From IMG/VR virus record IMGVR_UViG_3300027892_002409, positions 1 through 27,551 of that record: DNA of 27,551 nucleotides; one strand, given 5' to 3'. Numbering within the stretch: the stretch's first letter is position 1; each line of letters starts with the position of its first letter. Of this stretch, positions 5,018-27,551 are shown in pieces. A model generated the notes under the pieces. It was given only the letters and a program-made list of their open reading frames with translations, did no database searches and was not told where the DNA came from. The DNA comes from a virus (Duplodnaviria > Caudoviricetes). A program made the position numbers and the translations under genes.

Positions 5018-5260
5018 TTACTTAACATCCTTCTTAGCATTGTTAATCATTTCTTTGTAGGAAGGATTGGGATGATCCTCAAGATGCCCGTGATAGATAT
5101 CTATGATTTGTTTGGGTGCCGTACCATCAAACAAACTAGGAACTACACCATGTATTATACTTGTTATTCCTGCATAGATCAAACGAATACCGGCCACTAT
5201 TGCCCATCGTAGATGCTCAAAGTATGTAACCTTACTGGTGTTCAAATGATCATCAAACAT
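5018..5260 (-). CDS. Small hypothetical protein, DUF6356-like
   Basis: HL...TYFEHLRWA...SIIHGVVPSLF pattern; start ATG 5260 overlaps the upstream stop. Confidence 0.62.
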   Translation of the reverse strand: MFDDHLNTSKVTYFEHLRWAIVAGIRLIYAGITSIIHGVVPSLFDGTAPKQIIDIYHGHLEDHPNPSYKEMINNAKKDVK

Positions 5261-6701
5261 TGTATGTCCTAAAGTATTCACGAAGTAGTTCGTTGTCTAG
5301 TTTGATACCGTAATAGAAATTTGACTTGGTTAACTGTGCCGCCTTAGTGATTTTGATGCGCTCAAACTTGCTTTCAATTTCAATGCTGATTCTATGTATG
5401 TGTTCCATGCTCATCTCTTCCCAACAGGCAAGATACAAGCAATGATTCAATGTATCAATTACAATATAAATGTTGGTGTATTGTTTATTTAGATCGTTAA
5501 CTGTGCTGAGATTAATACTTTCTCCGTTAATCCTAAACATATCTGAACGTCCTTTGTGTACAAAGTATTCACCGTCCCTATCAAAGTAATCATTGGTTTC
5601 AACTTTTTTGTTATACACCGGCACAGTTACAGTAATTTTGCCTTCGACTGATAAATCAATTTTATAAAAATCATTAGGAATTAAATAGTATCTAGAATCA
5701 ATATTCCAATTATCTCTAGATGCTGTATTAATAAACAACGGACCAAGGGTCTCATTGGAACCAAAAATACTAGTTATGCTATTAAAGATTCCATCTCGTA
5801 CTGCGTGTTTGGCATTTTCTAATATGTAAGATAATGTGATTAAATCTAAGTTAGGCCATGTAACGTGTTTTGCTCTGCTTTCTTCGATAAATTTATCAAT
5901 TAAGAACGGGTATGGAAATGACAAATATCCCAATTCATTCTTGTAAGGAGTTAGTGCATCCACTAGTCCGCTAATTTGCCATGCGCCAGCACCGTCATAA
6001 AACAAATGCCTATTAACTTGTTCACTAGCAAGTAATGGTAACAATGTAACCGATGCACTTGCACCGTGATTGAGATTGTTAACGTGTAATGCTGTGCCTT
6101 TATACAGTTTAGAATTTCTTAAAGAGATTGCTGAAATAAATTCATGTGTATGTTCGATAACTTTAGGAACATCTGTTGTTCCGCTACTAGTTACCCTAAA
6201 TAATATGTCTGTTGGGCTGGGTTGAATATCTTTAATTGAATCAACCAACGTTTGTTCAATCACAAAATTAAAAGCATCAACTGTACTGTATGCCCTATTA
6301 GAATGTGCAGTAAAGAATACGTATTTGGAATATCCTTGATCAGTTTCTAATAGTTCTATAGGGAAATCGTGTAAAAATATATCAATAGGTGACAGCAATT
6401 TAGTTTTGGGATCGTTGTATTCTACATCTCTAAACTCATCAGTTCTGTTATAATCTACTACAACAATTTTAAGACTTAGTTCAGCTGCTGCAATAATAAT
6501 AGCAAAATAATCAATACCAAGTTTTTGCATACCAATAAGAATAGACTCTTGTGGTTGTGCGCTGTAATTAAATCTTAAAACATACTTCCAATAATTAATA
6601 CGCTCAACTAATTGTAATTTGTTGTATGTTTGATTGTTAGCGCATAAATCAGTAAAAATAAAATTATCGCTTATGAAATCTCTATTAATAATATTAGTCA
6701 T
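5253..6701 (-). CDS. Adenylate-forming (ANL/acyl-CoA synthetase-like) enzyme, divergent
   Basis: TSSGTTDVPK (A3 P-loop), FGSNET (A5), ETND (A7) and KGRSD (A8); start 6701 overlaps the upstream TAA. Confidence 0.78.
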   Translation of the reverse strand: MTNIINRDFISDNFIFTDLCANNQTYNKLQLVERINYWKYVLRFNYSAQPQESILIGMQKLGIDYFAIIIAAAELSLKIVVVDYNRTDEFRDVEYNDPKTKLLSPIDIFLHDFPIELLETDQGYSKYVFFTAHSNRAYSTVDAFNFVIEQTLVDSIKDIQPSPTDILFRVTSSGTTDVPKVIEHTHEFISAISLRNSKLYKGTALHVNNLNHGASASVTLLPLLASEQVNRHLFYDGAGAWQISGLVDALTPYKNELGYLSFPYPFLIDKFIEESRAKHVTWPNLDLITLSYILENAKHAVRDGIFNSITSIFGSNETLGPLFINTASRDNWNIDSRYYLIPNDFYKIDLSVEGKITVTVPVYNKKVETNDYFDRDGEYFVHKGRSDMFRINGESINLSTVNDLNKQYTNIYIVIDTLNHCLYLACWEEMSMEHIHRISIEIESKFERIKITKAAQLTKSNFYYGIKLDNELLREYFRTYNV

Positions 6702-7434
6702 ACATCTTCTCATAACTTCTAACAATTAATTCTGCAAATTCATCTAATTTTTTACCATAGCCGTAACTATGCCCTATAACGTGAACCCGAGGTATATTGC
6801 TAAAATTAATAACGCTATGGTAGTTTCGTATGTTAACTATGAAAGCTGTGCCTTCTTTAAATGGAACAACCCCATATCCTTCCAATACCATATAACAATC
6901 GTCAGGATGGATGACTGCTACATTGATAGGTACACCAAAATCTAACATATCCATACCTGTCTCTCCAGGCAATTTGCCCGGCATATCGCTATGTGGAGTT
7001 ATTGCAGAGCCAGGAGTGAGTTCCATAAAACGTATGCGTCGATAATTATCAGTCGGAAACACATTTTGCCAAAAGTGTTTAACAGTAGGCACCTTGCAAG
7101 CTAGTTCTGTCCAATGGTAAGGCACATCATCTTCATTGGTATACCCATAGTTTGTCCAAGCACCTGTCTTAGCTGTATCAATACCATGTATGCAACAACT
7201 ATTCCAACCAGTGTTATTATCTTCACGATGTGCTACCAAGTAAGACTCTGCTTGCTGTGCTTCTGATTGCCAATCTTTTAGATCAATGGTTAGGTCTAAC
7301 TTGATCCAGCCAAAGTTGGCATCGTTCAAAATCCATTGTGCTTTTTCAATAGTAGATATCAAATGGGTAGGAATTGGTTCTATGGTCCATACGCAGTCTT
7401 TATTGTTGTTATAGAATTCTAAGGCCGATATCAT
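6694..7434 (-). CDS. AspH-like 2OG-Fe(II) oxygenase
   Basis: RIRFMELTPG..ITPHSD ... YHSVIN...RVH (HxD...H...R). Confidence 0.8.
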   Translation of the reverse strand: MISALEFYNNNKDCVWTIEPIPTHLISTIEKAQWILNDANFGWIKLDLTIDLKDWQSEAQQAESYLVAHREDNNTGWNSCCIHGIDTAKTGAWTNYGYTNEDDVPYHWTELACKVPTVKHFWQNVFPTDNYRRIRFMELTPGSAITPHSDMPGKLPGETGMDMLDFGVPINVAVIHPDDCYMVLEGYGVVPFKEGTAFIVNIRNYHSVINFSNIPRVHVIGHSYGYGKKLDEFAELIVRSYEKMYD

Positions 7435-7439
7435 AATAC

Positions 7440-7468
7440 TACTTATCTGTTGATAAATGCTATAAGTA
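7440..7468. promoter_or_regulatory. Divergent late-promoter-like pair
   Basis: Minus-strand ATAAGTA (7446-7440) 5 nt before ATG 7434; plus-strand TATAAGTA (7461-7468) 5 nt before ATG 7474. Confidence 0.7.
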
Positions 7469-7473
7469 ATGAT

Positions 7474-8013
7474 ATGAAACTATTATTAGACCCTTCTACA
7501 TATATCGATAACGACAAACTTCCTACATTAGTCGATTTAGTTGAAGAATTTTCAAAGCAAGATCTGTCTCATTTATGGTTCGATGTAGGCGAAGTCCATG
7601 TTGGCCGATCTATTAATTGGAAATCTATTGCGTATGATTTGCGTGATAAACACTTCGCTAGCAAAGAGCTAGAAGAAAAGCTGGCGCCGATTGTTGAATA
7701 TGCAGAGACCATAGTTGGTTTGAAACGTGTGACCATTAACTTTTTGGAAGGGTATTCGTTCATGCCTATACATGTCGACGGTGATGAAGACATACCAGAA
7801 TACGATACTAGAAACGGATCGTATAATGTTGTTGTTCCTGTAACTGATCATGGACAATCTATAGTTGATTATGTTGTAGTTAAAAATAAGAAAGGGTATC
7901 CTCTTATTTTTCATGGACAAGTTCCACACGGCGCTATGAACGACACGTTACAAACAAGAATAACACTGTTCTTAATAGTTGATAAAACAAGATTTATATA
8001 TGACAGCGCCTAA
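7474..8013 (+). CDS. AspH-like 2OG-Fe(II) oxygenase
   Basis: MPIHVD ... PHGAMN...TRITL; start set at ATG 7474. Confidence 0.75.
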   Translation: MKLLLDPSTYIDNDKLPTLVDLVEEFSKQDLSHLWFDVGEVHVGRSINWKSIAYDLRDKHFASKELEEKLAPIVEYAETIVGLKRVTINFLEGYSFMPIHVDGDEDIPEYDTRNGSYNVVVPVTDHGQSIVDYVVVKNKKGYPLIFHGQVPHGAMNDTLQTRITLFLIVDKTRFIYDSA

Positions 8014-8866
8014 CGATAAACGACAACTGCTGTATGGTGAATCAACTGCTATACTCGATGCTGATGTATTAAGCAGCATTAATCTAACCAGTATTAATTT
8101 AACTACTGATTGCGCAGCAGAGTTTTGCTCTAGCTACAAAAAATGGATATTGTCTAGCAAGTTGAATAACATCAAGGGCCTTGATCAATATCCATTTATG
8201 TGTTATAGCAATGGTACCACAGAAGCATTTGATAAATTTTATATCAAGAATCACACACGCAGGTTCCGTTGTTTTAGGGGCGAGTATGTCTACCATAGAC
8301 TAACTTGGCGTAACAGTTGGCCTAACTGGACCTGGCTTGATGACGAATGTTTAGATACAAATGACGCTGTAGTTATTAGCTTACCATTTAGTGATACAGG
8401 CAACGCTCACAGTTTACATGAAGCATTGTTAGACAAGTGTGATGAGTTAGGTATACCGGTGTTGGTAGATTGTGCATATTTTGGTATATGCGAAGGGTTA
8501 AATTTTAATTTTGATCATACATGTATAACAGATATTACATTTAGTTTATCTAAAGTATTTCCAGTAGCACACGCAAGAATAGGTATTCGGTTTACTCGCA
8601 TTGATGATGATGACCCGTTGTTTGTTGTAAACAAGATTGGTTATACAAATAGGCTAGGCTCACAGATAGGATTACAACTTATTAACAACTTTTCTCCTGA
8701 CTATATCTATATCAAGTATAGAGATAGACAACTAGAAATTTGCAAAGAGTTAAATGTTACACCAAGCAGAACAGTGCTGTTTGGGATAGGTGGAGAGCAG
8801 TGGGTAGAGTATAACAGAGGAACTACTACTAATAGATTAAGTTTCAACAAGGTATATGAAGGGTAA
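8000..8866 (+). CDS. PLP-dependent enzyme (fold type I, aminotransferase-like)
   Basis: GTTEAF, LVDCAYFG (DxAY) and FSLSKVFPVAHARIG (Schiff-base Lys motif). Confidence 0.78.
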   Translation: MTAPNDKRQLLYGESTAILDADVLSSINLTSINLTTDCAAEFCSSYKKWILSSKLNNIKGLDQYPFMCYSNGTTEAFDKFYIKNHTRRFRCFRGEYVYHRLTWRNSWPNWTWLDDECLDTNDAVVISLPFSDTGNAHSLHEALLDKCDELGIPVLVDCAYFGICEGLNFNFDHTCITDITFSLSKVFPVAHARIGIRFTRIDDDDPLFVVNKIGYTNRLGSQIGLQLINNFSPDYIYIKYRDRQLEICKELNVTPSRTVLFGIGGEQWVEYNRGTTTNRLSFNKVYEG

Positions 8867-9920
8867 AATAATTAATTTTGAGATACTACATGTCAGCGAG
8901 GAAGAGCGCCGTAGTAGTATTATCAATCAACTAGAGTCTGCTAAAGAACAAGGGTACGATATTGTATACGGCCTGTTGCTGATGGACGGATTCTTATACC
9001 GTAATCCTGAAACATTTCCTGTAGAGATACCAGTAAAATTAATAGCAGGAATGTGCGAGCATCCCGACCATTTGTATCTCAATTACTATCATCGCATTGT
9101 TTATAATAGTTTTAAAAATACTCAATTGCCTAAATGGAATAGTGATAGTAAATCATTCTTGTTCTTAGGTGGTGTTCCTAGTAGACTAAATCGTATTAAC
9201 TTACTGAGCAAGTTCTACGATAGTAACATGTTAGATAATGCTGTGTGGTCGTTCTTCCCGCCATGGACTGATGCAGATAAGATTTGGTGCCGTACAGCAA
9301 TGCTACACTATACCGACGAACAATACTTAAAATTTTTATCTAGGTGCGAACGGCGTGTAGATGAGAGGTACGAAGAATCGAAGAACTATTCTCGAATCTC
9401 TCGAAAAGAGTGGGACGAACAAGACACATACAATCAACCATGGGTCAACGACTTGGCATGGGTAAATCCACAAATATTTGCTGATACAGTATTAAGTATT
9501 GTAAGTGAAGGCAATGCATACGATCCTGCCACTAACTATAGCTTCTTAACTGAAAAAACCTGGCGTGCCGTTGCTATGAGGCATCCTTTTATATTTTCCG
9601 GTTACCCTGAACAATTTGATTATGCCAAGAGTTTAGGGTTATGCACATTTGAACAATACATGCTAATTAAAGATTATGCTTATATTACAGATGAAGACAA
9701 GCGGTTAGACGCTGTGGTTGTAAATACTAAGTATTTTATAGACAACTACAATCAATACAACAACGAAATAGGTAAAGATATAGAACATAACTACAGTTTG
9801 TTTATGGAACTTTTTAAAAAAGATAACAAGCTCCTTAACTCGTTGGCAATTACAGAATATGACAAAGAACAATGGTTTAACCAAACTGGATTTTCTCACT
9901 TGTTAAAAATACAAAAATGA
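8856..9920 (+). CDS. Hypothetical protein, possible glycosyltransferase (GT10-like TEK motif)
   Basis: FLFLGG.P.RLNR and SIVSE...FLTEKTWRAVAMRHPFI resemble the E...TEK nucleotide-sugar motif; function tentative. Confidence 0.45.
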   Translation: MKGKIINFEILHVSEEERRSSIINQLESAKEQGYDIVYGLLLMDGFLYRNPETFPVEIPVKLIAGMCEHPDHLYLNYYHRIVYNSFKNTQLPKWNSDSKSFLFLGGVPSRLNRINLLSKFYDSNMLDNAVWSFFPPWTDADKIWCRTAMLHYTDEQYLKFLSRCERRVDERYEESKNYSRISRKEWDEQDTYNQPWVNDLAWVNPQIFADTVLSIVSEGNAYDPATNYSFLTEKTWRAVAMRHPFIFSGYPEQFDYAKSLGLCTFEQYMLIKDYAYITDEDKRLDAVVVNTKYFIDNYNQYNNEIGKDIEHNYSLFMELFKKDNKLLNSLAITEYDKEQWFNQTGFSHLLKIQK

Positions 9921-10564
9921 AGTACAACTACATATACGATATACAAAACTACACTAGCTTTGATAAGTTACAAGAGCTAACGGATATATGTCGATCAGAA
10001 TTAAAACTTATTGACTGGAAACAGTTTGTTATAGATATACAATTAACAGAAAAAGAAATCGATGTTCTTGGACCGTCGTGGCGTTATGGCACTGGTAATG
10101 CATCTCAGTTAGTTGAATGCGTAGAAAGTAACACCGTTGGCACCGTAGCACCTCCTACAAGTGAGCTAGGTACATATATGTGGTTTGTATTGTTTCCGGC
10201 AGGCGGTGACTATGTCAATTATAGAATCAATTCGTTAGTTCGTACCCTATTCCCAAAGACACTAACTGCTATCAACAATTTATCAGGATTACATCATGCT
10301 AATATGAATGTGATATCTCCTAAATTTAGAGTACCAAAGCATATTGATGAACCTTCGGGAAATGTGCTAACTGTAATTGTAACATTTAAAATATCAAAGA
10401 CTACTCCTGAGCTTGCAATTTTAAATATTGCTGGCACAGATCATAGTATGAAAGATCGTGAGTATTTTGTATTTGATTCCAAATTAGAACATTACGGAGA
10501 TAATTCATCTGATGATGACTGGATTGCATTAGCATTACAAATTACCAACACGGAATTTAAATGA
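9917..10564 (+). CDS. AspH-like 2OG-Fe(II) oxygenase
   Basis: ISP...VPKHID ... FVFDSKLEHYGDN. Confidence 0.78.
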   Translation: MKYNYIYDIQNYTSFDKLQELTDICRSELKLIDWKQFVIDIQLTEKEIDVLGPSWRYGTGNASQLVECVESNTVGTVAPPTSELGTYMWFVLFPAGGDYVNYRINSLVRTLFPKTLTAINNLSGLHHANMNVISPKFRVPKHIDEPSGNVLTVIVTFKISKTTPELAILNIAGTDHSMKDREYFVFDSKLEHYGDNSSDDDWIALALQITNTEFK

Positions 10565-11208
10565 CACATTTAATACCTTTAGAAAGTTATAAAGACTTTG
10601 ATAAAATTTTAGAGTTAGCACAAATCTGTAATAATGAAATGTCTCATATAAATTGGGACGACATTAAGGCCGATTTGTTATCTCAACCAAAAGATGTTGT
10701 ACCAAGTAACACTGTTCGCTGGATGGAACACATTGCCAATGTTGATGTTGGTGAAGTTGGCTATCGAGACAATAATCGGGAACTTGAATTATGTGTCCCT
10801 GAAATGCCAGAAGAAGTCGGTAGTTGGTTTTATATAAGTTTAAAGGACGGATACCAAATACGTACCGACCATAAGCAATATATTAATGCCGCATTTAAAA
10901 ATACAATGGAATACATTAGTACATTATCTAAGGCAGTGCATGTTAGTATCAACATTTTTAGTCCGCATATGGTCTCGCCAGATCATACTGACGGGTTTCC
11001 AGATTATAATTCGATATTGCTAACATTTAAAACATCAAAAAACAATCCAGAGAATGTTATGGCATCAATCGACGGTGAAGAATTTATTTTCAAAGATCGA
11101 GAATTTTTTGTTTTTGATCCAGAAATCCCGCACTCGGGCGTGAATAAATCCGACGATGATTGGTGCTTTTTAATCATAAGAATAGATAAATCAGAATTTA
11201 GTCAATAA
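10561..11208 (+). CDS. AspH-like 2OG-Fe(II) oxygenase (tandem paralog of 9917-10564)
   Basis: FSP...PDHTD ... FVFDPEIPHSGVN; same length and shared blocks with its neighbour. Confidence 0.78.
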   Translation: MTHLIPLESYKDFDKILELAQICNNEMSHINWDDIKADLLSQPKDVVPSNTVRWMEHIANVDVGEVGYRDNNRELELCVPEMPEEVGSWFYISLKDGYQIRTDHKQYINAAFKNTMEYISTLSKAVHVSINIFSPHMVSPDHTDGFPDYNSILLTFKTSKNNPENVMASIDGEEFIFKDREFFVFDPEIPHSGVNKSDDDWCFLIIRIDKSEFSQ

Positions 11209-11212
11209 CATT

Positions 11213-11800
11213 ATGTTTAAATTTTTATTCCCTACAATAATATTAGAAGAACAGTTAGCTGGTTCGGTACTTATTAATATTCAAAATGAGCTTGATGAGC
11301 TATTACCCAATTTACAGTTTTCATTATACTCTGTTGACGATACCGGCGGCTTAATGATGAGTGACGAGGGTGTTCAGACAACTAATAATATTATTGAACG
11401 TTATAATTTAACAAAATTAGAAGCCGAAATAATACGCTGTGCAAATAAGTATTTGAAAGAAACAAATACAATTGCGGAAGTAGATTTTAAAATAACAACG
11501 TCGATGATGACGCTGTTACCTCCGCAATCTGTATCAACAAGCCATATGCATCTGTCAAGTTGTTTAGTAGTAGTGTATTATTATAAAACTCCAGACCACG
11601 GAGGAAACTTGAGATTGTTTAATCCTAGTTCAACGTTGGAGTTTTATAAAGATGAATACGTAGACATTGTTCCAACTGAGGGAAAATTAATTGTATTTCC
11701 AGGATGGCTTTATCACAAAGTTCTTAAAAATAATAGCAATCTTGTTCGTCGTAGTATTGCTATTACAATACAAATTTACAAAGATTTAATTAATAAATGA
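11213..11800 (+). CDS. 2OG-Fe(II) oxygenase, TIGR02466-like
   Basis: LFPT N-terminus, SHMH, VYY, GNLRLFNP, EGKLIVFPGWLYHKV..N....RRSIA. Confidence 0.85.
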   Translation: MFKFLFPTIILEEQLAGSVLINIQNELDELLPNLQFSLYSVDDTGGLMMSDEGVQTTNNIIERYNLTKLEAEIIRCANKYLKETNTIAEVDFKITTSMMTLLPPQSVSTSHMHLSSCLVVVYYYKTPDHGGNLRLFNPSSTLEFYKDEYVDIVPTEGKLIVFPGWLYHKVLKNNSNLVRRSIAITIQIYKDLINK

Positions 11801-12852
11801 AAATATCATCACATAACCATTGGGATCCACTAGAAGAGATTATTGTAGGCAGGGCAGACAATGCCCGTGTTCCTACAGTAGATGCCAGCACCATGAGCAT
11901 GTGCTATACTAATCACAACATAGAAACAATCAAGCCATTAGCAGGTCAGTATCCACAAAGCCTCATCGACGAAGCTAATGAAGACATGGAAGCACTAGTT
12001 AGCGCATTGGAGCAATGTCACGTTAAAGTACATCGTCCTGAAATACAGGATAACGCTAAAGAGTTTAGTACACCTGAATGGTCTACTACTGGTTGGTACA
12101 CTTGGTGTCCTCGTGATTTGCTATTGCCATTAGACAATCTAATGATTGAAACACCGAGTCCATGTCGTGCTAGGTATTTTGAAACCCGTGCGTATCACGA
12201 CATTATGATAGATGCTGTTAAGGACGGTGTTGAGTGGATTGCCGCGCCCAAACCTATCCTAACAGATGCTAGCTATAACTTTACAGATTTGAGTCAGCCA
12301 AGTTTAACTAACCTTGAGCCGGTGTTTGATGCTCCTAACTGTATACGCCTAGGTAAGGACATACTGTTTCAAATTAGCAACACTGGCAATCACTTAGGAT
12401 TACAGTGGCTACGAAACACGCTAGAGCGTCGTGGATATCGTGTACATGCCGCAGAACACATTTACAGTTTCGCACACATGGACAGTACTATCATTCCATT
12501 GCGTCCAGGACTGGTATTGCTTAATAGTACTCGCGTTAATCCCAACAACTGTCCTAAGTTATTTGAATCGTGGGACAAGATTTACTTCCAAGATGTTGCT
12601 CCTATTGTTCCACCTACAAGTGGGCCGGGCAGTATTAGTCCGTGTAGTCCATACATTGGTATGAACATACTCAGTGTTGATCCTAATACAGTATGTGTGG
12701 GCAACACACAACTATCATTGATACGTGAATTGGAAAAACGCAAGTTTACAGTTATTCCGTTACCCATGCGACATGCTGCTACCCTAAGCGGTGGATTCCA
12801 TTGCGCTACACTAGACTTGCGCCGAACTGGCTCACTAGAGAATTATTTCTGA
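11797..12852 (+). CDS. Amidinotransferase (glycine/inosamine-phosphate amidinotransferase family)
   Basis: SHNHWDPLEEIIVG, CPRD, FDA (Asp), HMDST (His) and GGFHC (Cys): catalytic triad intact. Confidence 0.92.
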   Translation: MKISSHNHWDPLEEIIVGRADNARVPTVDASTMSMCYTNHNIETIKPLAGQYPQSLIDEANEDMEALVSALEQCHVKVHRPEIQDNAKEFSTPEWSTTGWYTWCPRDLLLPLDNLMIETPSPCRARYFETRAYHDIMIDAVKDGVEWIAAPKPILTDASYNFTDLSQPSLTNLEPVFDAPNCIRLGKDILFQISNTGNHLGLQWLRNTLERRGYRVHAAEHIYSFAHMDSTIIPLRPGLVLLNSTRVNPNNCPKLFESWDKIYFQDVAPIVPPTSGPGSISPCSPYIGMNILSVDPNTVCVGNTQLSLIRELEKRKFTVIPLPMRHAATLSGGFHCATLDLRRTGSLENYF

Positions 12853-16470: not shown

Positions 16471-16473
16471 GCT

Positions 16474-19323: not shown

Positions 19324-20290
19324 ACCTTATATTAAAATGTTTGATATTTACTATGGCACTAAATGCAATTTAGCCTGTAGGCATTGTGATACCAGAAGTG
19401 ATGTTATTAGGAAAACTGAAACAGATCCTCATATCGATACTATTCTAGAAGGGATTACATTAGCCAAAGAAAAGTTCGATATTGACTTGTATAGTTTTAT
19501 TGGTGGCGAACCTTTATACTATCTAGACAAGATTGAAATTATATTAGCACACATACGAAAAATAGATCCTACTGCAAAGATACAGGTTTCCACCAACGGT
19601 GCATTATTATCTAAAAACTTAGATGCCGTTGTGTCACTTATGACAACATACGAAACCAGCTTGTTTGTTTGTAATCACTTTGCGGCATTTGATGAAAAAA
19701 TGACTGATAAAATCACTGAAAGTGTAAATCAGTTAGTTGATCGATTACACTTAGGCAAGGGCGATGCAAATATATTTTTAAGCAAATTGTTAAGATTAGA
19801 CAACCCCAGGAACGATCCGTATCTCGATACATGGATTGAACAGCAGGGAGAATATTTTCTTGGCGAGCAACCGCTTGACAATTATTATCACAATGATAAG
19901 ATTTTTGTACACTTTAGACCACAGACAGATTTTAAAATGCATCATTATATGCAAAACGGAAAACCCAAACCTTTTATGACTGGGAACTCAGCACTGTCCT
20001 ATAAAGACGGTTGTAGTAGTCCAATGTGTAGTTTTATGATAGATAAAAAATTATACAAGTGTTCTGCACTAGGCACACTCGAACGCTTTTTAGAATATCA
20101 TGGCAGCTTGGAAGATCCCGATTGGCAAAAATATCGTAACTACAAATATTTAGATTTAGAAACGTGTACTGAAGAAGAAGCAATGCAATTTCATGCCACC
20201 AAGTATTGTTCTATATCAGAATGTGATATGTGCGGAACTAGTAGTTTTAACAGAACTCGAGAAGATGTAATTCATGTACGCCGTCGTTAA
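19316..20290 (+). CDS. Radical SAM protein
   Basis: CNLACRHC, GGEP and STNG; C-terminal Cys cluster (C..C, LYKC, CDMC). Confidence 0.9.
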   Translation: MTKPYIKMFDIYYGTKCNLACRHCDTRSDVIRKTETDPHIDTILEGITLAKEKFDIDLYSFIGGEPLYYLDKIEIILAHIRKIDPTAKIQVSTNGALLSKNLDAVVSLMTTYETSLFVCNHFAAFDEKMTDKITESVNQLVDRLHLGKGDANIFLSKLLRLDNPRNDPYLDTWIEQQGEYFLGEQPLDNYYHNDKIFVHFRPQTDFKMHHYMQNGKPKPFMTGNSALSYKDGCSSPMCSFMIDKKLYKCSALGTLERFLEYHGSLEDPDWQKYRNYKYLDLETCTEEEAMQFHATKYCSISECDMCGTSSFNRTREDVIHVRRR

Positions 20291-20825
20291 CTGGACCAAA
20301 GATTTAGATTTAACCGAGTTCTATGCTGAAGCAGAACAGCGCGGCTTTGTTAACAATGCTAGTCAGAAAGCAATGATAGACTGCTTTCGCAATGAGCCAA
20401 AGTGGGCGGCATGGATACTATATCAAGACCGCAAGGCTGTTGGCAGTGTAGCAGCACATAGTTTTGAACCAATGGGTCCTAATGCTTACCGTGTGCTAGC
20501 ACGTACTTGCACATTTGGCACTGCTAGACTCAATGGAGGATTAATCACTCCTAGAAAGTTAATTGCTGAACATCAGAACTTAACGGATCAGTTTTTGTTG
20601 CCTACTTGCATTGCGTGGGCAAGTGGAGAGCTGTATGCTACCAGCAATGAAAGCACTGTAGCTAGTCAACGTCTCGTACATAGACATTATTTTCCTACAC
20701 TAGCTAAACTTGGTATTGTGAAACGTGTATGCGAACTGAATTATCGTAACACAGATCAAACTGTCTGGCGCATATATCCAGACAAGTTCCTTGCTAACCT
20801 AGAACGCTATCCTAGATGGCTTTGA
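20274..20825 (+). CDS. Hypothetical protein, possibly GNAT fold
   Basis: WILYQDRKAVGSVAAH...YRVLARTC resembles GNAT beta strands; coupled to the upstream gene. Confidence 0.45.
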   Translation: MYAVVNWTKDLDLTEFYAEAEQRGFVNNASQKAMIDCFRNEPKWAAWILYQDRKAVGSVAAHSFEPMGPNAYRVLARTCTFGTARLNGGLITPRKLIAEHQNLTDQFLLPTCIAWASGELYATSNESTVASQRLVHRHYFPTLAKLGIVKRVCELNYRNTDQTVWRIYPDKFLANLERYPRWL

Positions 20826-21747
20826 TTGGAATATTCCTAAACTTCTTTTTAAAGTTCGGATCAAGGGTAAACGGTATGTTAGGTAAATGATTATCTTTCT
20901 GTTTGTCGAATGCACACAGTTTACATACTTCGATGGACTTCTTTAAATCTTCTTCTACAAACTTGCGCACACGTTCGTAGCCATCTAACGGATCACACGG
21001 GACGTATCGTTCTAAAACTTTCTGTGCTTCTTCTACATATTTTACTTGATGCTTTGCTTCAGGATAATTTGTTACAGCAGGGCAGTGATACATTATACCA
21101 TGCTGAATATTATACTCACTGTGCCATACGCATGCTTTAAAACTTTCTTCCTGATCACCGCCCATTACAAAATGCACAGTACCGTTCTCAACACGATCAT
21201 GATACGGTTTGTAAAAATGTATAAAGTGCTCGTATCTTAAAATGCGTTTGTTGTTAACGTAAAATGATGTTGATCGATTTTGTTTGTTTGGGATATATTC
21301 GTCTTCAACAACATGCATCTTATCAGACCACGGCTCAATCACGGCTAACACATCTTTCTTTAATTTTTGATATTCATCTTCGGACTTATAGTGACATGAT
21401 ACCCGCAAGTGAGCGTTACCATCACCCATGATGAGATGTGCTAGATCTTTACGTTTAATTATTTTAGAGCCGTTTGTTGGTACTTCGATATGTGCATTAG
21501 GCCATAGTCTTCTCAGGTTTAAAAACCATTCGTCTAAGTTTGGATGTAAGAACATTTCGCCGCCAGCAAATGCTATTTCGTCTGTGTCTAAATACTCTGC
21601 CCACTTTTCCCAACGATGCGCATTGTCCTTCCAGGCAAAATTGCCAGTAAAATCATAACAGGCAAGGCCGCCGCAATGGCTACATGTCATGTTACATAGG
21701 TTGTTTACTACTACAGACAAGTAAGTGTCTATTTTAATTTTATTCAT
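20812..21747 (-). CDS. Radical SAM protein
   Basis: CNMTCSHC, GGE and TNG; C-terminal C, MYHCP and CKLC. Confidence 0.9.
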   Translation of the reverse strand: MNKIKIDTYLSVVVNNLCNMTCSHCGGLACYDFTGNFAWKDNAHRWEKWAEYLDTDEIAFAGGEMFLHPNLDEWFLNLRRLWPNAHIEVPTNGSKIIKRKDLAHLIMGDGNAHLRVSCHYKSEDEYQKLKKDVLAVIEPWSDKMHVVEDEYIPNKQNRSTSFYVNNKRILRYEHFIHFYKPYHDRVENGTVHFVMGGDQEESFKACVWHSEYNIQHGIMYHCPAVTNYPEAKHQVKYVEEAQKVLERYVPCDPLDGYERVRKFVEEDLKKSIEVCKLCAFDKQKDNHLPNIPFTLDPNFKKKFRNIPIKAI

Positions 21748-22330
21748 ATTTTACTCTAGAGTCATCTAATGTAGGAAATGCAGTTTTAAGTTGATTGAAA
21801 ACAAAAGGTGTTAGTTTCCATACAAATTCCATTTGTCTAATTTTAGGATTAGCTGTCCAAAAATCAACGGCACTTAATATCTCGTCAAACTTAATAACGT
21901 AGTCGCTGGTAAATGCTGTTGGGTCATCGTTAGGTATTGGCTGTTCTATAAAACTTAAATCCAAGTGTAGTATATCAATGCCGTTAGGATCTATACTAAC
22001 GAGTCTACAAGCTTCTGCTAGCTCTTGTTTATCGTGTACATAGTCTGTATGTATAAGCTCTGGATATAGTCTGCTTACACTACCCATTACAATCATCTTT
22101 TTAACTTTGTTCTTTAATGCGTGGACCAGTCGAGTTTGTTGCTTGTCACGGTAAGCATTGTTGATAAACAAGTCGGCACCTGTCGCGGCTTCTACAACTC
22201 GATCAAAGTCTGCGGCTATATCATAACCGTTACTACGACTGAGCCCAACAACTTCCCACTCAGCAGATTTAAAACTGTCGTATAGGGCTTTACCTATTCC
22301 GTATGTGTGTCCGGTAATTACAACTTTCAT
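21740..22330 (-). CDS. Short-chain dehydrogenase/reductase
   Basis: ITGHTYGIG, FINNA, MGS and YVHDK (YxxxK). Confidence 0.85.
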   Translation of the reverse strand: MKVVITGHTYGIGKALYDSFKSAEWEVVGLSRSNGYDIAADFDRVVEAATGADLFINNAYRDKQQTRLVHALKNKVKKMIVMGSVSRLYPELIHTDYVHDKQELAEACRLVSIDPNGIDILHLDLSFIEQPIPNDDPTAFTSDYVIKFDEILSAVDFWTANPKIRQMEFVWKLTPFVFNQLKTAFPTLDDSRVKYE

Positions 22331-22770
22331 CTATTAGGTGCTCCAGTTGCTCTGAACGATATAACATTAACTAATGGGGTTGACAGCCAATATTCAATTG
22401 AGTCAATTACAACTTGTGAATCGTTGTAGGCAGTGCTGGATAGTTTTAATAACAGTATGTTAGGAAGATTAAGCTCTAACACACGTTCTTCTAATCTTGT
22501 TTTTTGCTGTGTATAGTCCGGCATTTCTACATCGGGAAAATCTGTAACTATACTGCCCATGACAACCATCTTGCCAACACTTGCGTACAGCTGATTAAGT
22601 ATGTCCATTTGTATACCATAGGTGTTATTGATAAACAAGTCACAACCAACTGCGGCACTTATGTCTGATTCTCTATTGAAGGCTGTCACATGACATCCTT
22701 TATTAACAAAGTGGTCGTATAGTGCTTGGCCGAGGCCGCGGGTAGTTCCTGTGATACCAACTTTAAGCAT
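22327..22770 (-). CDS. Minimal short-chain dehydrogenase/reductase (paralog of neighbour)
   Basis: ITGTTRGLG, FINN, MGS and YTQQK. Confidence 0.8.
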   Translation of the reverse strand: MLKVGITGTTRGLGQALYDHFVNKGCHVTAFNRESDISAAVGCDLFINNTYGIQMDILNQLYASVGKMVVMGSIVTDFPDVEMPDYTQQKTRLEERVLELNLPNILLLKLSSTAYNDSQVVIDSIEYWLSTPLVNVISFRATGAPNR

Positions 22771-23431
22771 AGGTAACTTTAAACTCCGGTGTTACAAGTT
22801 TCTCAAATTCTTCGAGCAGTTCGCGTTCTAGTTTAAATGACAAACTAAATGTTGTATGAGCAAAGTCTGCTAGTTTATGTTTTTGATTAGCACGATTTAA
22901 AAATGAACTAAATCGATTGTCAAACTTATATCTAAAATCTTGTTGTTCATACGCAGGCTCCATACTAATGCTAACTAAATCCACAGGCTGACGACTACGG
23001 CGCAATGGCTCGCGTACTACCAATTGTAGTCGTGGAATAGATCCATAATTAGTAGCCGCATGTATTCGACTGGCATCCATGTATGCCCAACGATTATCTC
23101 TAACACATTCGTACATGACTTTTTCGTCTAAGTCGATCAGGTATGCCTGCTCACCTGTTAAGTTTAAATGCCAGCGATTATCGATGTCAGCGTGAGCCAT
23201 ATAACTTTCGCCTGGCGCTAGATTGATAATACGTGCTTGTCCAATAGACATTGGCATAGTGTCTAATACTTGTTCCCAAATTGTATCTTTGTAAAATTCT
23301 TTGATCACCCACTTGTCGTAGAAAAAATCACCAGTTGGCTCATTAAGAACAATACTTTCTGTAATTGGATGCTCTTTGAGTGCTTGATCGATTAATCCTT
23401 CCGGACATACCCATATTTGTTTAGTAATCAT
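22763..23431 (-). CDS. AspH-like 2OG-Fe(II) oxygenase with C-terminal extension
   Basis: ARIINLAPG.SYMAHAD...WHLNL ... IHAATN....RLQLVV. Confidence 0.8.
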   Translation of the reverse strand: MITKQIWVCPEGLIDQALKEHPITESIVLNEPTGDFFYDKWVIKEFYKDTIWEQVLDTMPMSIGQARIINLAPGESYMAHADIDNRWHLNLTGEQAYLIDLDEKVMYECVRDNRWAYMDASRIHAATNYGSIPRLQLVVREPLRRSRQPVDLVSISMEPAYEQQDFRYKFDNRFSSFLNRANQKHKLADFAHTTFSLSFKLERELLEEFEKLVTPEFKVTYA

Positions 23432-23435
23432 GAAA

Positions 23436-23466
23436 TATTTATGTGCTATTATTACTAGCTTAAATA
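23436..23466. promoter_or_regulatory. Divergent late-promoter-like pair
   Basis: Minus-strand ATAAATA (23442-23436) 4 nt before ATG 23431; plus-strand TTAAATA (23460-23466) 4 nt before ATG 23471. Confidence 0.72.
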
Positions 23467-23470
23467 TATC

Positions 23471-24151
23471 ATGGATCTGTATTTAAATCATAACTGGAAG
23501 CGAATTGGCATTAGTATAAGCGGTGGTGCTGATAGTGCCTTATTGGCATATTTGATATGTTCAAACACGGATGCAGATATACACTTTACAAACCAAATTA
23601 GACTTTGGAAGACACGCCCGTGGCAGGAACATGTAGCTGATAATGTTATTGATTGGTTTAAAGGTCGTTTTAAGAATAATTTTTTTCTGCATAGAAATCT
23701 AATTCCATCAGAATTAGAATGGGCTGATAAAGGTCCAACTATTGTAGATGAATATGGAAAATTAAAAAGTGGCAATCAAATTATATTAAGATCTCACAAC
23801 GAGTATATTGCACACAAATATAAATTAGATGCCTTGTATGGCGGAATTAATAAAAATCCAGACATTGAGATTAAAGGAGCACTAGCTGACCGCAATGACG
23901 GACATATACCTCCTCATTTTATACACAATGGTATTGACATTTGCCATCCGTTTGTGTACACTAAAAAAGACTGGATAGTTAAACAATACTTTGAAAATAA
24001 TATCGAAGACTTGTTAAAGTTGACTCGCAGTTGTGAAGGCGAATTTAAAGGCATAGATTATACAACATACACACCTGGACAGTACGTTCCTATATGCGGA
24101 GAATGTTTTTGGTGCAAAGAGCGTGAGTGGGCTTTACAGTGCCAAGACTAA
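23471..24151 (+). CDS. QueC-like PP-loop ATPase (adenine nucleotide alpha-hydrolase)
   Basis: SISGGADS, PF...K and TRSC...CGECFWC.ER Zn motif; divergent, so QueC function is not assured. Confidence 0.75.
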   Translation: MDLYLNHNWKRIGISISGGADSALLAYLICSNTDADIHFTNQIRLWKTRPWQEHVADNVIDWFKGRFKNNFFLHRNLIPSELEWADKGPTIVDEYGKLKSGNQIILRSHNEYIAHKYKLDALYGGINKNPDIEIKGALADRNDGHIPPHFIHNGIDICHPFVYTKKDWIVKQYFENNIEDLLKLTRSCEGEFKGIDYTTYTPGQYVPICGECFWCKEREWALQCQD

Positions 24152-24708
24152 TTGCGTTTGGTTGTAGTTTTAGTTATGGCCAGTATCTGGATGACCCTGC
24201 TACACAGGCATGGCCTTCGGTGCTAGGTAAAATGTTAGATATTCCAGTAGTAAATAACGGCGAACCTGGTGCGAGTAATTTAGAAATCTTAACAAATATC
24301 TTGAAGTTTAAATTCAAACCACACGACTTAGTGGTTGTAGGATGGACGATTATATATCGAGATATAATTTATAATAGATGGAGTAAAAACACACGCATCG
24401 GTAGTTGGGTAGATCAAGAAAAGTTTGGTGTATGGGGTAGTCTTCATAACGATTATGATCTAGCTGTTCGAGCAGGCTTGCAAATTAATCATTCAAGTCT
24501 TTATCTCGAATCGTTGGGACTTACACAATATAATTTTTTTGCAGTAGACATGTTTAATAAGAAACCTATATGGATTAAGAAACCTGTTAACTGGATAAAC
24601 AAGAGCATTATTCCAGATAAAGACATTGCCAACGATGGTATGCACCCCGGAATTCTATCACACAATGCAGCAGCAAATAACTTATACAGTATAATACATG
24701 AAAGATAA
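24139..24708 (+). CDS. SGNH/GDSL hydrolase-fold protein
   Basis: FGCSFSYG, WP, NNGEPGASN and DGMHPG (DxxH); probable GTG start at 24139. Confidence 0.78.
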   Translation: MPRLIAFGCSFSYGQYLDDPATQAWPSVLGKMLDIPVVNNGEPGASNLEILTNILKFKFKPHDLVVVGWTIIYRDIIYNRWSKNTRIGSWVDQEKFGVWGSLHNDYDLAVRAGLQINHSSLYLESLGLTQYNFFAVDMFNKKPIWIKKPVNWINKSIIPDKDIANDGMHPGILSHNAAANNLYSIIHER

Positions 24709-25951
24709 ATCTAGTACATTTTGCATGCACCCTTTCACAGGGTTGGCAACTCGAGAAGACGGTGCTATAAAAGTATGTTGCCGAAGCCAACCCATAGGCT
24801 GGATACAAGATGAAAGTTTAGAAGATGTTTGGAATGGGACCATGATGCGTGAAGTACGTAAAAAAGTACTATGCGGGGAGCGGCCTGAAGTTTGCAAGCC
24901 ATGTTTTGACCTAGAAGATCAAGGAGTTGAAAGTCTACGTCAGCGTCACATCAACGGTATCATACCCGAAGCACGTATTAATTTATATCCTGATACTCTA
25001 CTACAAGAAATAATGCCATTTGAATTTCCTACTATGGAAATTAAACTCAATAATCTGTGCAATCTAAAATGTCGCATGTGTAATCCACTCGATAGCACTA
25101 ACTGGAAAGACTGGGACAAAGTTGTTCCCTTTTACAAAAAAGAAAATAACTACCTAGTACCTACTGTAGAACGACTGGTAAATAAACCAGGACAATATAT
25201 TGGTCCGTTTGATGATACTGACAGATGGTGGGATAGTTTTGAAAAACTGTTACCACACTTTAAACGTGTTGAGTTTGCAGGTGGCGAACCACTAATGGAT
25301 CCACAGCACTACAAGATTTTAGATATGCTCAAGCCTTACGGGGCTAACATAGAATTAAAATATGCTACCAACGGAACAACAATGGGTATTAGCAAAGGAC
25401 GAACAATACACGACTACTGGCCACATTTTAGAAGTATCGCTGTCAATGTTAGTCTTGACGGTATACACGATGTTTACAATTATATACGAGGTAATGCTGA
25501 TTTTACTCAAGTTGAAGCAAACATCAAAGAAATAAAAAAGATATCCAACGTAAGTCGTGTAGTAGGTGCGTTTACCGCACAGGCTGGTAACATATTACAA
25601 GCCGCAGAGTGTATTGATTATTTTATTAACAAGATGGATATTGTATTTTACAGTCATCGTGTGAGTTATCCCAACTGCTTATCAGCACAGGTGTTACCTA
25701 ACGAGTTAAAGGCATTGGCTATTACAAAACTGTTAACAGTTAAATCACAAGTAGATACATGGGATGCTGTTAAAAAGAATCCTCTGTTGGCTAAAATTAC
25801 ACATCAACAGATACAAGACAACATTAATTACTTACAAGCCAAAGATCAGAATAATTTGTGGCAAGACTTTTTAGATTTTAATTTTGCATTAGACTCTACT
25901 CGAAATCAAGACTTGTTGGCAGTTATACCAGAATTTAAACCGTATGTATAA
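24698..25951 (+). CDS. Radical SAM protein with N-terminal twitch/SPASM-like domain
   Basis: FCMHPF..VCC...CKPC; CNLKCRMC; GGEP; TNG; SLDG...YIR. Confidence 0.92.
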   Translation: MKDKSSTFCMHPFTGLATREDGAIKVCCRSQPIGWIQDESLEDVWNGTMMREVRKKVLCGERPEVCKPCFDLEDQGVESLRQRHINGIIPEARINLYPDTLLQEIMPFEFPTMEIKLNNLCNLKCRMCNPLDSTNWKDWDKVVPFYKKENNYLVPTVERLVNKPGQYIGPFDDTDRWWDSFEKLLPHFKRVEFAGGEPLMDPQHYKILDMLKPYGANIELKYATNGTTMGISKGRTIHDYWPHFRSIAVNVSLDGIHDVYNYIRGNADFTQVEANIKEIKKISNVSRVVGAFTAQAGNILQAAECIDYFINKMDIVFYSHRVSYPNCLSAQVLPNELKALAITKLLTVKSQVDTWDAVKKNPLLAKITHQQIQDNINYLQAKDQNNLWQDFLDFNFALDSTRNQDLLAVIPEFKPYV

Positions 25952-26834
25952 AATAACTAGTTCTTGGCCGCATCAAGATCAAATAAAAGTTGAATGGAAT
26001 CTTGGCAAGCGTTGTAACTACGATTGTACATATTGTCCTTCAAGTATTCATGATAATCATAGTCCGCATACAGATATTAACATCCTAGAAGCAACTGTTG
26101 ATAAACTATGCGAAATTGGAAAACCGTTACGTATTAGTTTAACAGGTGGCGAACCTTGTGTACATCCCGATATAGAAGATCTACTAGACTACTTTAAGCG
26201 TAAGGATATATTCTGGGTCAACTTAACAACCAACGGCACTCGACCTGCTAACTGGTATTTGCAAAACGAAATGTATTTTAATCACCTAGTGTTTAGCCTG
26301 CATTTTGAATATGACTGGCAGCGTGTGGTGAGAACAATTAATGAGTTCTATGACAGAACTCAAACAGACTTCTTTGTTAACATCATGGCTCATCACGATC
26401 ATATGGACAGTGTTCGCAAAGTAGTTAAAGAGTTTCGAGAGAAAGGGATTAGATTTGCTGTGCGTAGAATACGTTGGACTGAGGGTGATCACAATGTATT
26501 TGACGATATGCGCTATGATGGTAACGACTTAGAATGGATTATCTCACAGGATGCTACCGCAAAGGCTAATTGTAGAATAGACGATGTAGAAATTATGCAT
26601 GCCAACGATGTAATAAAATTGCACATGAACAAATACAAAGGTTGGACCTGTAACGCAGGTATAGAAAGTCTGATGATAAATTGGGACGGAGATGTACACA
26701 GAGCGACTTGCAGAGTCGGTGGTAGTCTTGGCAACATCTATGAAGGCAACTTCGTTGCTCCTAGCAACCCCGTAACTTGTGACCGTGATTTCTGTACCTG
26801 TGCAGCAGACATTCCATTGACTAAAACAAAATGA
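25944..26834 (+). CDS. Radical SAM protein with C-terminal SPASM-like domain
   Basis: CNYDCTYC, GGEP and TTNG; TCNAG...ATC...CDRDFCTC. Confidence 0.92.
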   Translation: MYKITSSWPHQDQIKVEWNLGKRCNYDCTYCPSSIHDNHSPHTDINILEATVDKLCEIGKPLRISLTGGEPCVHPDIEDLLDYFKRKDIFWVNLTTNGTRPANWYLQNEMYFNHLVFSLHFEYDWQRVVRTINEFYDRTQTDFFVNIMAHHDHMDSVRKVVKEFREKGIRFAVRRIRWTEGDHNVFDDMRYDGNDLEWIISQDATAKANCRIDDVEIMHANDVIKLHMNKYKGWTCNAGIESLMINWDGDVHRATCRVGGSLGNIYEGNFVAPSNPVTCDRDFCTCAADIPLTKTK

Positions 26835-26840
26835 AAATAT

Positions 26841-27551
26841 CTACATCAGGTGTTTCAATTCTGGAAATACATCAGAGAACTTAGTTTTTCTAACGATATC
26901 TAGAGACTCGATATATTCCTTAAATGCTGGTAGTTGTGCCGTATGATCTTCGGCATCCATAAAGTCTAATACTGCTTGCCAACGTTTCCATCCATAAGGA
27001 TTGTTTTTCCAAAAATCTTCATCTTGCCTGTAGTTGGTATGCAGCCAGTTAGCAAGTTCTGCAAAGCTGCTGCGTACTTGTGCCTTATCTTCTGCAGGCA
27101 ATAGTCTAATACTCAGAAAGGTGGGTATGTACAACAGATGCATATTAATAATTCCGCCACCTGCTTGTATTCCGCCTACTGTATTTTCAAGATTGACTTT
27201 TTTAAAGTTCTGTGTGATCTTCCACTTGGCAAAATCAGCCAAGTGTTTGATGTTTAATATCTGTATAGCGGTGGCAATGCTAACTTGTATGTTGTTGGGT
27301 GTGTTATCTAGTTTGTGAAGATTATGTTCGATAGTGGCCCAATCACTAGGATAACGTATATACCAATTACGGTCGCCAACAGCGTCAATACTAAAACCCA
27401 CTTTAACTTTTTTGAATTTTTTCCATAGTTCAATAATTTCATCATCTACTAGTAATCCATTCGTATTGTAACGTATAAGGATTTTATCAGCATATCCCTG
27501 TCGAATGATTTCTTCAAGAAACCATTTATGTTCACGAATCATTAAAGGTTC
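26841..27551 (-). CDS. Radical SAM protein, C-terminal part (5' end outside window)
   Basis: Frame is open to the window edge (EPLMIREH, i.e. just after GG); YNTNG and SIDA....YIRYP; paralogous to 24698-25951. Confidence 0.82.
   Translation of the reverse strand, partial: EPLMIREHKWFLEEIIRQGYADKILIRYNTNGLLVDDEIIELWKKFKKVKVGFSIDAVGDRNWYIRYPSDWATIEHNLHKLDNTPNNIQVSIATAIQILNIKHLADFAKWKITQNFKKVNLENTVGGIQAGGGIINMHLLYIPTFLSIRLLPAEDKAQVRSSFAELANWLHTNYRQDEDFWKNNPYGWKRWQAVLDFMDAEDHTAQLPAFKEYIESLDIVRKTKFSDVFPELKHLM

Follow-up and report, generated by a model that had tools for sequence, protein, structure and literature searches.

What does a phage make with 29 genes, most of them resembling tailoring enzymes, that lie next to a gene for a fibre-like protein? 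The question is raised by the virus record IMGVR_UViG_3300027892_002409, a stretch of 27,551 bases that is referred to here as the window. Between positions 5018 and 27551 the window is filled by 29 intact open reading frames (ORFs), back to back and 99.7% coding, and this island has a GC content of 36.3% versus 43.6% upstream. An earlier note, made from the sequence alone, had counted about 29 ORFs there, mostly for tailoring enzymes, and was correct in that number. The island is incomplete in the window because its last radical S-adenosylmethionine (SAM) gene (26841) is cut by the contig end. It is real, conserved and unexplained; islands of this kind have been noticed before, yet remain unsolved.

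The answer towards which we lean, with slightly more confidence than doubt, is late cytoplasmic synthesis of a heavily edited glycan that is placed on virion proteins; each reaction step in this scheme is one that we infer. A guanidino or amidino substituent is probably part of this glycan. Compared with the earlier interpretation, a complex moiety attached to virion proteins or glycans, the evidence is more specific in indicating a glycan. New in the window are a StrB1-like amidinotransferase accompanied by a PRMT-like enzyme, two glycosyltransferase (GT) folds that had been hidden and a clean late-promoter pattern; also new is a candidate initiating enzyme pair, glycogenin-like GT8 proteins, located in relatives.

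The features are listed with window coordinates, strand and, in brackets, the kind of support. ORFs are named in the text by their first coordinate. 2OG, 2-oxoglutarate; PLP, pyridoxal phosphate; SDR, short-chain dehydrogenase/reductase; aa, amino acids.

3314..3319 (+) late-promoter-like TAAATA, upstream of the fibre gene (motif)
3351..5015 (+) fibre-like virion protein, Mtd_N-like start, Gly/Thr/Val/Asn repeats; island border and possible acceptor (weak profile matches)
5018..5260 (-) small DUF6356 protein, 80 aa (E 1e-13)
5253..6701 (-) ANL-like adenylate-forming enzyme, invariant TSSGTT-PK loop (Pfam E 0.001 and motif)
6694..7434 (-) AspH-like Fe/2OG oxygenase (Pfam)
7440..7468 (7440-7445 minus, 7463-7468 plus) divergent late-promoter-like TAAGTA pair (motif)
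7474..8013 (+) AspH-like oxygenase (weak Pfam match, HxD..H present)
8000..8866 (+) PLP fold-type I enzyme, aminotransferase or decarboxylase, conserved DC-Y and SLSK (Pfam E 5e-4 and motifs)
8856..9920 (+) GT-B-fold glycosyltransferase (structure model)
9917..10564 (+) AspH-like oxygenase (Pfam)
10561..11208 (+) AspH-like oxygenase (Pfam)
11213..11800 (+) 2OG-FeII_Oxy_5 / phrog_81 oxygenase (Pfam, PHROG)
11797..12852 (+) amidinotransferase nearest StrB1, the inosamine-phosphate amidinotransferase (PDB profile search, alignment)
12852..13328 (+) AspH-like oxygenase (Pfam)
13325..14455 (+) fusion of a GT-A/nucleotidyltransferase fold (about residues 9-230) and a class I methyltransferase fold (about 234-367) (structure model)
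14406..15164 (-) SGNH-like acyl transferase or esterase, weak (Pfam E 0.0013)
15161..15655 (-) AspH-like oxygenase (Pfam)
15655..16470 (-) core Fe/2OG oxygenase, H178-x-D180, H237 and R250 invariant (motif)
16476..16492 (both strands) divergent late-promoter-like TAAGTA pair (motif)
16517..17485 (+) PRMT-like methyltransferase, accessory gene, both active-site Glu aligned (best E 5e-10)
17475..18170 (+) protein with a protein-kinase-like fold that lacks the catalytic HxD and DFG; may be a pseudokinase (sequence comparison)
18163..19323 (+) N-terminal twitch radical SAM protein (NF033640, 220 bits)
19313..20290 (+) radical SAM protein, C-terminal Cys cluster (Pfam and motif)
20274..20825 (+) conserved core protein, GNAT-like by eye only (conservation)
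20812..21747 (-) radical SAM protein (Pfam and motif)
21740..22330 (-) short SDR, Gly-rich NAD motif and YxxxK (motif/profile)
22327..22770 (-) short SDR, Gly-rich NAD motif and YxxxK (motif/profile)
22763..23431 (-) AspH-like oxygenase (Pfam)
23436..23466 (both strands) divergent late-promoter-like TAAATA pair (motif)
23471..24151 (+) QueC-like PP-loop ATPase, Zn-type Cys motif (below the QueC cut-off)
24127..24708 (+) SGNH-like protein, weak (Pfam E 0.06)
24698..25951 (+) core N-terminal twitch radical SAM protein (NF033640, 314 bits)
25944..26834 (+) core radical SAM protein, SPASM/twitch-type Cys at the C-terminus (Pfam, conservation)
26841..27551 (-) core twitch radical SAM protein, C-terminal half, 461-471 aa in relatives; the island runs past the contig end (NF033640, 187 bits)

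A predicted guanidino-forming enzyme and its possible partner

The amidinotransferase, the PRMT-like methyltransferase and the two SDRs that had been called earlier are all supported by sequence matches. StrB1 (PDB 1bwd) is the best solved match to the amidinotransferase, full-length and at E 4e-103; six other solved sequences follow at e-64 to e-70. D178, H227 and C336 are invariant in 11/11 sequences and align to the catalytic residues of 1bwd. StrB1-type amidinotransferases have a catalytic Cys-His-Asp triad in a pentein fold. The protein encoded at 16517 has a SAM-binding motif and a double-Glu loop that align to PRMT, over a match that spans only about residues 2-125, and all its strong matches are protein arginine methyltransferases. 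It could equally methylate a small guanidino group as a protein arginine. The presence of a guanidino-making enzyme beside one of a family that methylates such groups suggests a methylguanidino product.

A search with the amidinotransferase found 22 viral loci (73-96% identity), every one with other island genes. A UDP-sugar dehydrogenase and an epimerase lie in the same island at 5 of these loci, and the extra genes at others encode a halogenase, a TauD-type oxygenase and a B12 radical SAM protein. The islands of relatives also hold a cold-shock domain fused to glutathione peroxidase or to a 2OG oxygenase (L034:12701-13432, L048:4276-5304).

The same enzymes could instead build a diffusible aminocyclitol- or aminoglycoside-like metabolite, freed at lysis or acting within the host. 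The StrB1-like, PLP, SDR, kinase-fold and twitch radical SAM proteins resemble those of streptidine/aminoglycoside pathways. Similar cyanophage genes have been termed "antibiotic synthesis genes" (PMC12801897), and a metabolite is raised for cyanophage clusters in PMC7824862. Unlike the streptomycin pathway of StrB1, the window shows neither an evident cyclitol-forming enzyme nor an active kinase, and neither an exporter nor a cyclitol synthase was seen. The ORF at 17475, earlier labeled kinase-like, does have protein-kinase-like features, but the catalytic HxD and the DFG-type Asp are absent from its product and from the 7 close homologues. Two distant paralogues keep just an Asp at the DFG-like position. 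The kinase-fold protein is conserved, and the island that encodes it often has a second, distant paralogue as well. The linkage to fibre genes and the swapping of alleles gene by gene, both described below, better suit a surface antigen, and we consider a metabolite quite improbable.

Glycosyltransferase folds

The structure model of the GT-B protein (8856; predicted local distance difference test, pLDDT, 93) matches GT-B enzymes along its length and confirms what had been a tentative GT assignment. Fold comparison gives Z scores of 10.9-9.7 to GT-B enzymes, the best with a root-mean-square deviation of 4.8 over 263 aligned residues; Foldseek gave no match at E<=0.001, and a PDB sequence search gave no meaningful one. 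A second GT-fold gene, at 13325, was overlooked in the earlier note and was found by its structure model (pLDDT 92.8). Its first domain has a GT-A or nucleotidyltransferase fold (best Z 10.2), with chlorovirus A64R among the tied top matches (Z 10.1), and its second domain has a methyltransferase fold (Z 8.6). The GT-A fold is tied with nucleotidyltransferases, and the nearly invariant D56-E-D58 is a candidate for the canonical DxD metal motif. The top Foldseek matches include collagen hydroxylysine glycosyltransferases; the ESM Atlas returned unnamed viral clusters only.

Outside this window, two paralogous genes lie behind the tail fibres in four relatives and in the cultured phage RsoM2USA, in an operon opened by the late motif described below. 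Glycogenin is the one family represented among the 19 matches of their joint profile (E 2e-8). A Pfam search left the pair unrecognized. Glycogenin links sugar to a protein side chain.

A GT-B fold next to oxygenases also fits post-replicative DNA hypermodification, in which oxygenases would hydroxylate a base, the GT-B enzyme would glycosylate it and the others would elaborate it, or in which the QueC-like enzyme would complete a 7-deazaguanine pathway. The top folds for 8856 are the T4 alpha- and beta-glucosyltransferases, with the GT of phage HY126 at rank 7, and an island gene is the sole phrog_1550 match in 5/5 records. Relatives encode FolE, QueD, QueE and a 536-aa protein with motifs that look DpdA-like by eye, which is present in 4/4 further records. 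The earlier statement that no DNA-transfer enzyme is visible therefore holds within the window but not for the relatives' genomes, which carry these genes elsewhere. The DpdA-like label comes from motifs judged by eye; the TGT model matched 0/5 and a PDB search gave no match. The protein (L031:5988-7595; G001 165985-167595, minus strand) adjoins DNA polymerase and is a candidate for the missing transglycosylase. It shares 43% identity with a protein that lacks annotation in Pseudomonas phages of the PA5oct/Paride type, the DNA of which is reported to carry modified G (PMC12191111).

Tet_JBP, however, scored above cut-off in 0/4 records, two of them complete, and is not listed for any of the nine window oxygenases. 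FolE, QueD, QueE and the DpdA-like gene lie outside the island, with the late motif before 0/4. Phages of the PA5oct type have the DpdA-like gene and no twitch match, and RsoM2USA is the opposite. The QueC-like gene is absent (at >=40% identity) at 7/35 loci. It scores 14.5 bits against PF06508, below the cut-off of 22, and its product has the PP-loop and a Cys motif; the YPDC motif of QueC was not seen. In addition, bacterial homologues of the twitch enzymes are located in polysaccharide loci. DNA modification loses weight because the Dpd-type genes are off the island and without the late motif, TET/JBP was not found and cultured phages dissociate the two gene sets; it is an unlikely explanation.

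Oxygenases, radical SAM proteins and weakly assigned enzymes

Eight of the nine 2OG-Fe(II)/AspH-like oxygenases match Pfam (E<=0.1), seven as Asp_Arg_Hydrox (one at E 0.03 only) and one as 2OG-FeII_Oxy_5. The ninth (15655) is without a Pfam match and was recognized by motif, its H-x-D, H and R being invariant in 8/8 homologues. All six radical SAM proteins match PF04055. CxxxCxxC is present in five of them, and the motif of the sixth falls beyond the contig end. Three (18163, 24698 and 26841) exceed the curated 170-bit cut-off of the NF033640 twitch model; the remaining three fall short of it. Weak hidden Markov model matches plus motifs underlie the PLP, adenylating, QueC-like and two SGNH assignments, and PDB profile searches of the PLP, adenylating (ANL), QueC-like and GNAT-like proteins gave no meaningful match. 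The GNAT label for 20274 remains a guess by eye, with no match from Pfam or the PDB profile search.

These families raise the possibility that residues of virion proteins are tailored directly, by hydroxylation of Asp, Asn or Lys, methylation of Arg and radical cross-links, with sugars minor or absent. Seven oxygenases match the Asp/Asn beta-hydroxylase family, the strong matches of the PRMT-like protein are to enzymes that act on protein arginine, and the collagen enzymes matched by 13325 act on hydroxylysine. SPASM/twitch radical SAM enzymes frequently modify peptides. On the other side, the StrB1-like enzyme, the two GT folds and the nucleoside diphosphate (NDP)-sugar enzymes require a sugar substrate, and the dense coding of the part of the island in the window leaves no room for a precursor peptide, DUF6356 aside. 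The DUF6356 gene is the sole small ORF in the contig-cut island that could fit a precursor of a peptide made by ribosomes and modified after translation (RiPP). It lies downstream of the adenylating enzyme at the loci inspected, and its product is a possible carrier or partner. We regard direct residue tailoring as very unlikely.

Relatives, conservation and viral origin

The viral origin assumed in the earlier note is borne out, since the relatives are T4-like myoviruses with structural genes. A scan of 83 proteins of at least 170 aa from the first 128 kb of one relative (G001, 282 kb) revealed a major head protein, portal, sheath, tube, terminase and a gp55-type late sigma factor. G001 has 19 radical SAM matches, and two complete relatives of 358 and 364 kb have 13 and 10. 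G001 and G003 each encode 8 NF033640 proteins above the cut-off. The island spans 26-45 kb in relatives. In G003 and G409 it is a single block inside the tail/structural region, between tail-fibre genes and a fibre-like gene; in G001 it is split, and in G408 its amidinotransferase part lies outside that region. RsoM2USA carries a minimal version behind its virion genes, followed 3' by about 17 unannotated ORFs of similar size (about 200 aa; L055:29000-41320). At 55-66 kb (L025-L026), flanked by tail genes and fibre genes, G001 has a further run, of some ten genes of the 2OG-oxygenase type.

In 21 of the 22 loci no more than 10 kb separate a fibre homologue from the amidinotransferase gene, and the oxygenase gene at 12852 is immediately 3' of the latter in 19. 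The earlier tail-fibre call for 3351-5015 itself rests on weak matches (Mtd_N, E 8e-6; PHROG tail fibre, E 2e-4). With the core twitch enzyme as query, 155 viral stretches were recovered; 80 were kept, and 35 of these were fully flanked. Gene presence was scored at >=40% identity. Conserved co-occurrence, proposed earlier as a check, was borne out: two partner radical SAM genes of the core twitch enzyme recur in 35/35 fully flanked loci, and the genes are not independently scattered. Of these loci, 31 have the 15655 oxygenase and 29 the GNAT-like gene; the kinase-like gene and the QueC-like gene each occur in 28, and the PRMT-like gene is confined to 3. Because gene presence differs across the 35 loci, the island is described as a fixed core with a changing shell. 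When each gene was compared with the nearest of nine loci, nonsynonymous divergence (pN) was far below synonymous divergence (pS) in every island gene having a close homologue (0.022 vs 0.55 for the amidinotransferase). The nearest homologue switches locus from gene to gene.

A cellular origin is rejected: the record is viral, the relatives are myoviruses, and the matches in bacterial and archaeal genomes are phage-like contigs. A scan of those genomes based on the amidinotransferase alignment gave 2 matches, both on short contigs of metagenome-assembled genomes (MAGs) with phage gene order; it used two exact peptide patterns and could miss more distant bacterial relatives. Phage island contigs (L057, L058 and L069) have been binned into MAGs labeled Puniceispirillum and Verrucomicrobiales. 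Mis-binned phage contigs can therefore create false bacterial distributions.

NF033640 was found at E<=1e-40 in 3 of 401 sampled bacterial genomes (a Pseudomonadota sample), one of which was a mis-binned phage contig. Both remaining cases sit in polysaccharide loci. One has four copies amid rmlC-rmlD-wzm-wzt-WbsX, one of them fused to the Wzt ABC ATPase, and the other has a copy that adjoins GT2 and sugar epimerase genes. The Wzt ABC ATPase-twitch radical SAM fusion lies at L067:8579-11143 (G108) and is followed by three more copies, TylF and WbsX. The moraphages (PMC12619734; up to 307 kb, radical SAM proteins and oxygenases unmentioned in the text available) were considered and set aside as unlike this lineage by description.

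Within its first 5 kb the window carries four tRNA genes together with genes for an RpoZ-like protein, an oxygenase, two phosphatase-type proteins and the fibre-like protein (554 aa). The tRNA genes (Met, Arg, Gly, Arg) lie at 152-1295. Amid them, at 240-467, is the gene that resembles RNA polymerase omega (RpoZ; NCBIfam E 8e-5, just below cut-off), which is present in G005 too and could aid host prediction. G001 and G004 have arrays of 28-29 tRNA genes close to the island.

Predicted late promoters and cell compartment

The impression that the promoters look late is supported: a late-promoter-like motif opens all 6 transcription units visible in the window. TAA[AG]TA lies 10-30 nt upstream of 6/6 divergent island leaders and 37 nt upstream of the fibre gene, against a background of 0.8 per kb per strand. 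TAAATA is rarer overall in the window than expected (27 found, 49 expected), and only its position before unit starts is informative. The motif precedes 20/24 divergent leaders vs 5/105 internal genes in four relatives, and 13/23 virion genes vs 3/24 control genes in G001. Because it resembles the T4 late-promoter site TATAAATA and precedes virion genes and divergent leaders, TAA[AG]TA is read as a predicted late promoter. Two lake metatranscriptome runs, which contained 6-7% of the sequence words, gave scattered short contigs, some identical, that do not show expression, timing or habitat.

The absence of a visible transporter is upheld, as no window ORF resembles a membrane protein. Among 238 island ORFs in six relatives, 2 reach a hydropathy of 1.9 (the bacterial Wzm control, 2.39), and none encodes a flippase, polymerase or ABC transporter.

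These observations bear on the view that the island modifies the host envelope, by O-antigen or capsule conversion, and so blocks competing phages. The bacterial homologues tailor an ABC-exported polysaccharide, and soluble enzymes could work on cytoplasmic lipid-linked intermediates. Genes of the KdsA-like, epimerase and heptose types are present elsewhere in G001, and this view is favored for the similar islands of pelagimyophages (PMC7029224). Late-type promoters, however, leave a short time for remodeling a cell close to lysis, and the export machinery is missing from the 238 ORFs. Envelope modification seems a rather unlikely function.

Comparison with known systems

The word undescribed, used earlier for this pathway, is too strong, as modules of radical SAM, amidinotransferase and GT genes have been published for phages of Campylobacter and for one cyanophage. 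In the Campylobacter phages, CP220 and CPt10, five radical SAM genes and an amidinotransferase form an interchangeable module (PMC2853527, Timms et al. 2010). Their genomes hold 11-12 radical SAM genes each, and a metabolic benefit was suggested (PMC2853527). In the CP220 record two genes with NDP-sugar-transferase domains follow the module, and a tail fibre gene lies 12 kb further. The amidinotransferase is 30% identical to that of the window, and the stretch has 10-12 genes and no annotated oxygenases, compared with 29 or more genes in the window island.

ORF301-310 of cyanophage S-SCSM2R place GTs, a PLP enzyme, a radical SAM protein, an oxygenase and an inosamine amidinotransferase in one run, which was interpreted as antibiotic and cell-wall genes (PMC12801897). 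The radical SAM protein is 45% identical to the product of a G001 island gene. The run differs from the window in having a single radical SAM gene, five GTs and no adjoining fibre genes in the stretch examined. The pelagimyophage host recognition cluster is a large variable island of the structural region; it combines fibres with GTs and radical SAM cassettes and has been interpreted as modifying the host O-chain (PMC7029224, Zaragoza-Solas et al. 2020). Those phages are smaller and different, their clusters are GT8-dominated, and their freshwater members are without radical SAM genes (PMC7029224).

Glycosylation of virion proteins by virus-encoded enzymes is known elsewhere. Chlorovirus A064R combines GT and methyltransferase in one polypeptide for the capsid glycan, and it and mimivirus L230, a hydroxylase plus GT acting on virion proteins, have been shown biochemically (PMC9614988). 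The protein at 13325 shares, by its model, the fold of A64R domain 1; the chlorovirus and mimivirus systems have no radical SAM or amidino chemistry in the accounts covered (PMC9614988). Mycobacteriophage virion glycans have also been described (Freeman 2023, as cited in PMC12619734). The NF033640 family is a sequence model for which no reaction was found, and its bacterial members lie in ABC-type polysaccharide loci, not by fibres.

For a marine T4-like genome, the presence of 12 radical SAM genes was interpreted in terms of Fe-S metabolism (PMC5332604), and a cluster in Vibrio phage K566 was termed an anti-defense island (10.1101/2024.12.24.630238). The cultured phages S-SCSM2R, K566 and CP220, which carry related modules, are distant from this lineage (24-36% identity). 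In the text available, no product of such an island is named in PMC2853527, PMC12801897, PMC7029224, PMC5332604 or 10.1101/2024.12.24.630238, nor in PMC7150976, 10.1101/2023.04.13.536721, PMC12191111, PMC7824862, PMC8504454 or PMC13282480. The term "radical SAM" does not occur in PMC7824862, "radical" and "glycosyl" do not occur in PMC13282480, and "radical" does not occur in PMC8504454. The literature search as a whole, with most subscription papers and all supplements outside its coverage, found no paper naming the product.

A proposed pathway and its difficulties

In the glycan pathway that we propose, NDP-sugars would come from the host or from the dehydrogenase and epimerase genes inserted in relatives' islands. 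The glycogenin-like GT8 pair would start a chain on a protein side chain, and its extension and capping would fall to the GT-B and GT-A/methyltransferase proteins. The SDRs and the PLP enzyme could make an amino sugar or aminocyclitol, which the StrB1-like enzyme would amidinate; where present, the PRMT-like enzyme would methylate the guanidino group. Epimerization, oxidation and acylation may be the work of the twitch radical SAM proteins, the oxygenases and the SGNH, ANL and QueC-like enzymes. Tail fibres would be an example of the virion acceptors, and the coat would be varied among phages by swapping of genes and alleles.

Several findings weigh against this pathway. N-x-S/T sequons are enriched in only two repeat-rich fibres (13 vs 7.8 and 14 vs 8.0 expected) and show no enrichment in 11 other virion proteins. 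A virion glycan is unreported for any of these phages in the literature covered. The two GT-fold genes compare with 15 redox enzymes in the window, so that editing exceeds the apparent need of one short glycan. The top fold matches of 8856 act on DNA (Z 10.9 and 10.7), scores that are tied with those of PimA and other non-DNA enzymes. In G408, a complete genome, about 90 kb separate the amidinotransferase island from the tail module, and the island does not adjoin the fibre gene. The 22 amidinotransferase loci contain near-identical groups and amount to about a dozen independent cases. The control set for the late motif in G001, which we chose ourselves, included at least 3 genes that on later inspection looked structural, one of them with the motif.

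A more far-reaching version is that these phages have a protein glycosylation system of their own, which starts in the manner of glycogenin, ends with the action of up to about 18 radical SAM enzymes, and coats tail fibres with methylguanidino sugars new to any organism, swapped in the manner of serotypes. We put this forward tentatively and think it rather less probable than not.

Implications

The island matters to these phages, because it takes up 26-45 kb, about a tenth of the genome, and is under strong purifying selection. Since 2010 it has been asked what phages gain from carrying a dozen radical SAM genes (PMC2853527). A testable answer is offered by the anatomy of the island: the genes would make a virion glycan late in infection, and both the enzyme pair that starts it and the guanidino step can be named. 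If this is true, self-made virion glycans would extend beyond giant eukaryotic viruses and mycobacteriophages to aquatic jumbo phages. The NF033640 family would then gain its first substrate class, and the islands would hold a large pool of new sugar-editing enzymes.

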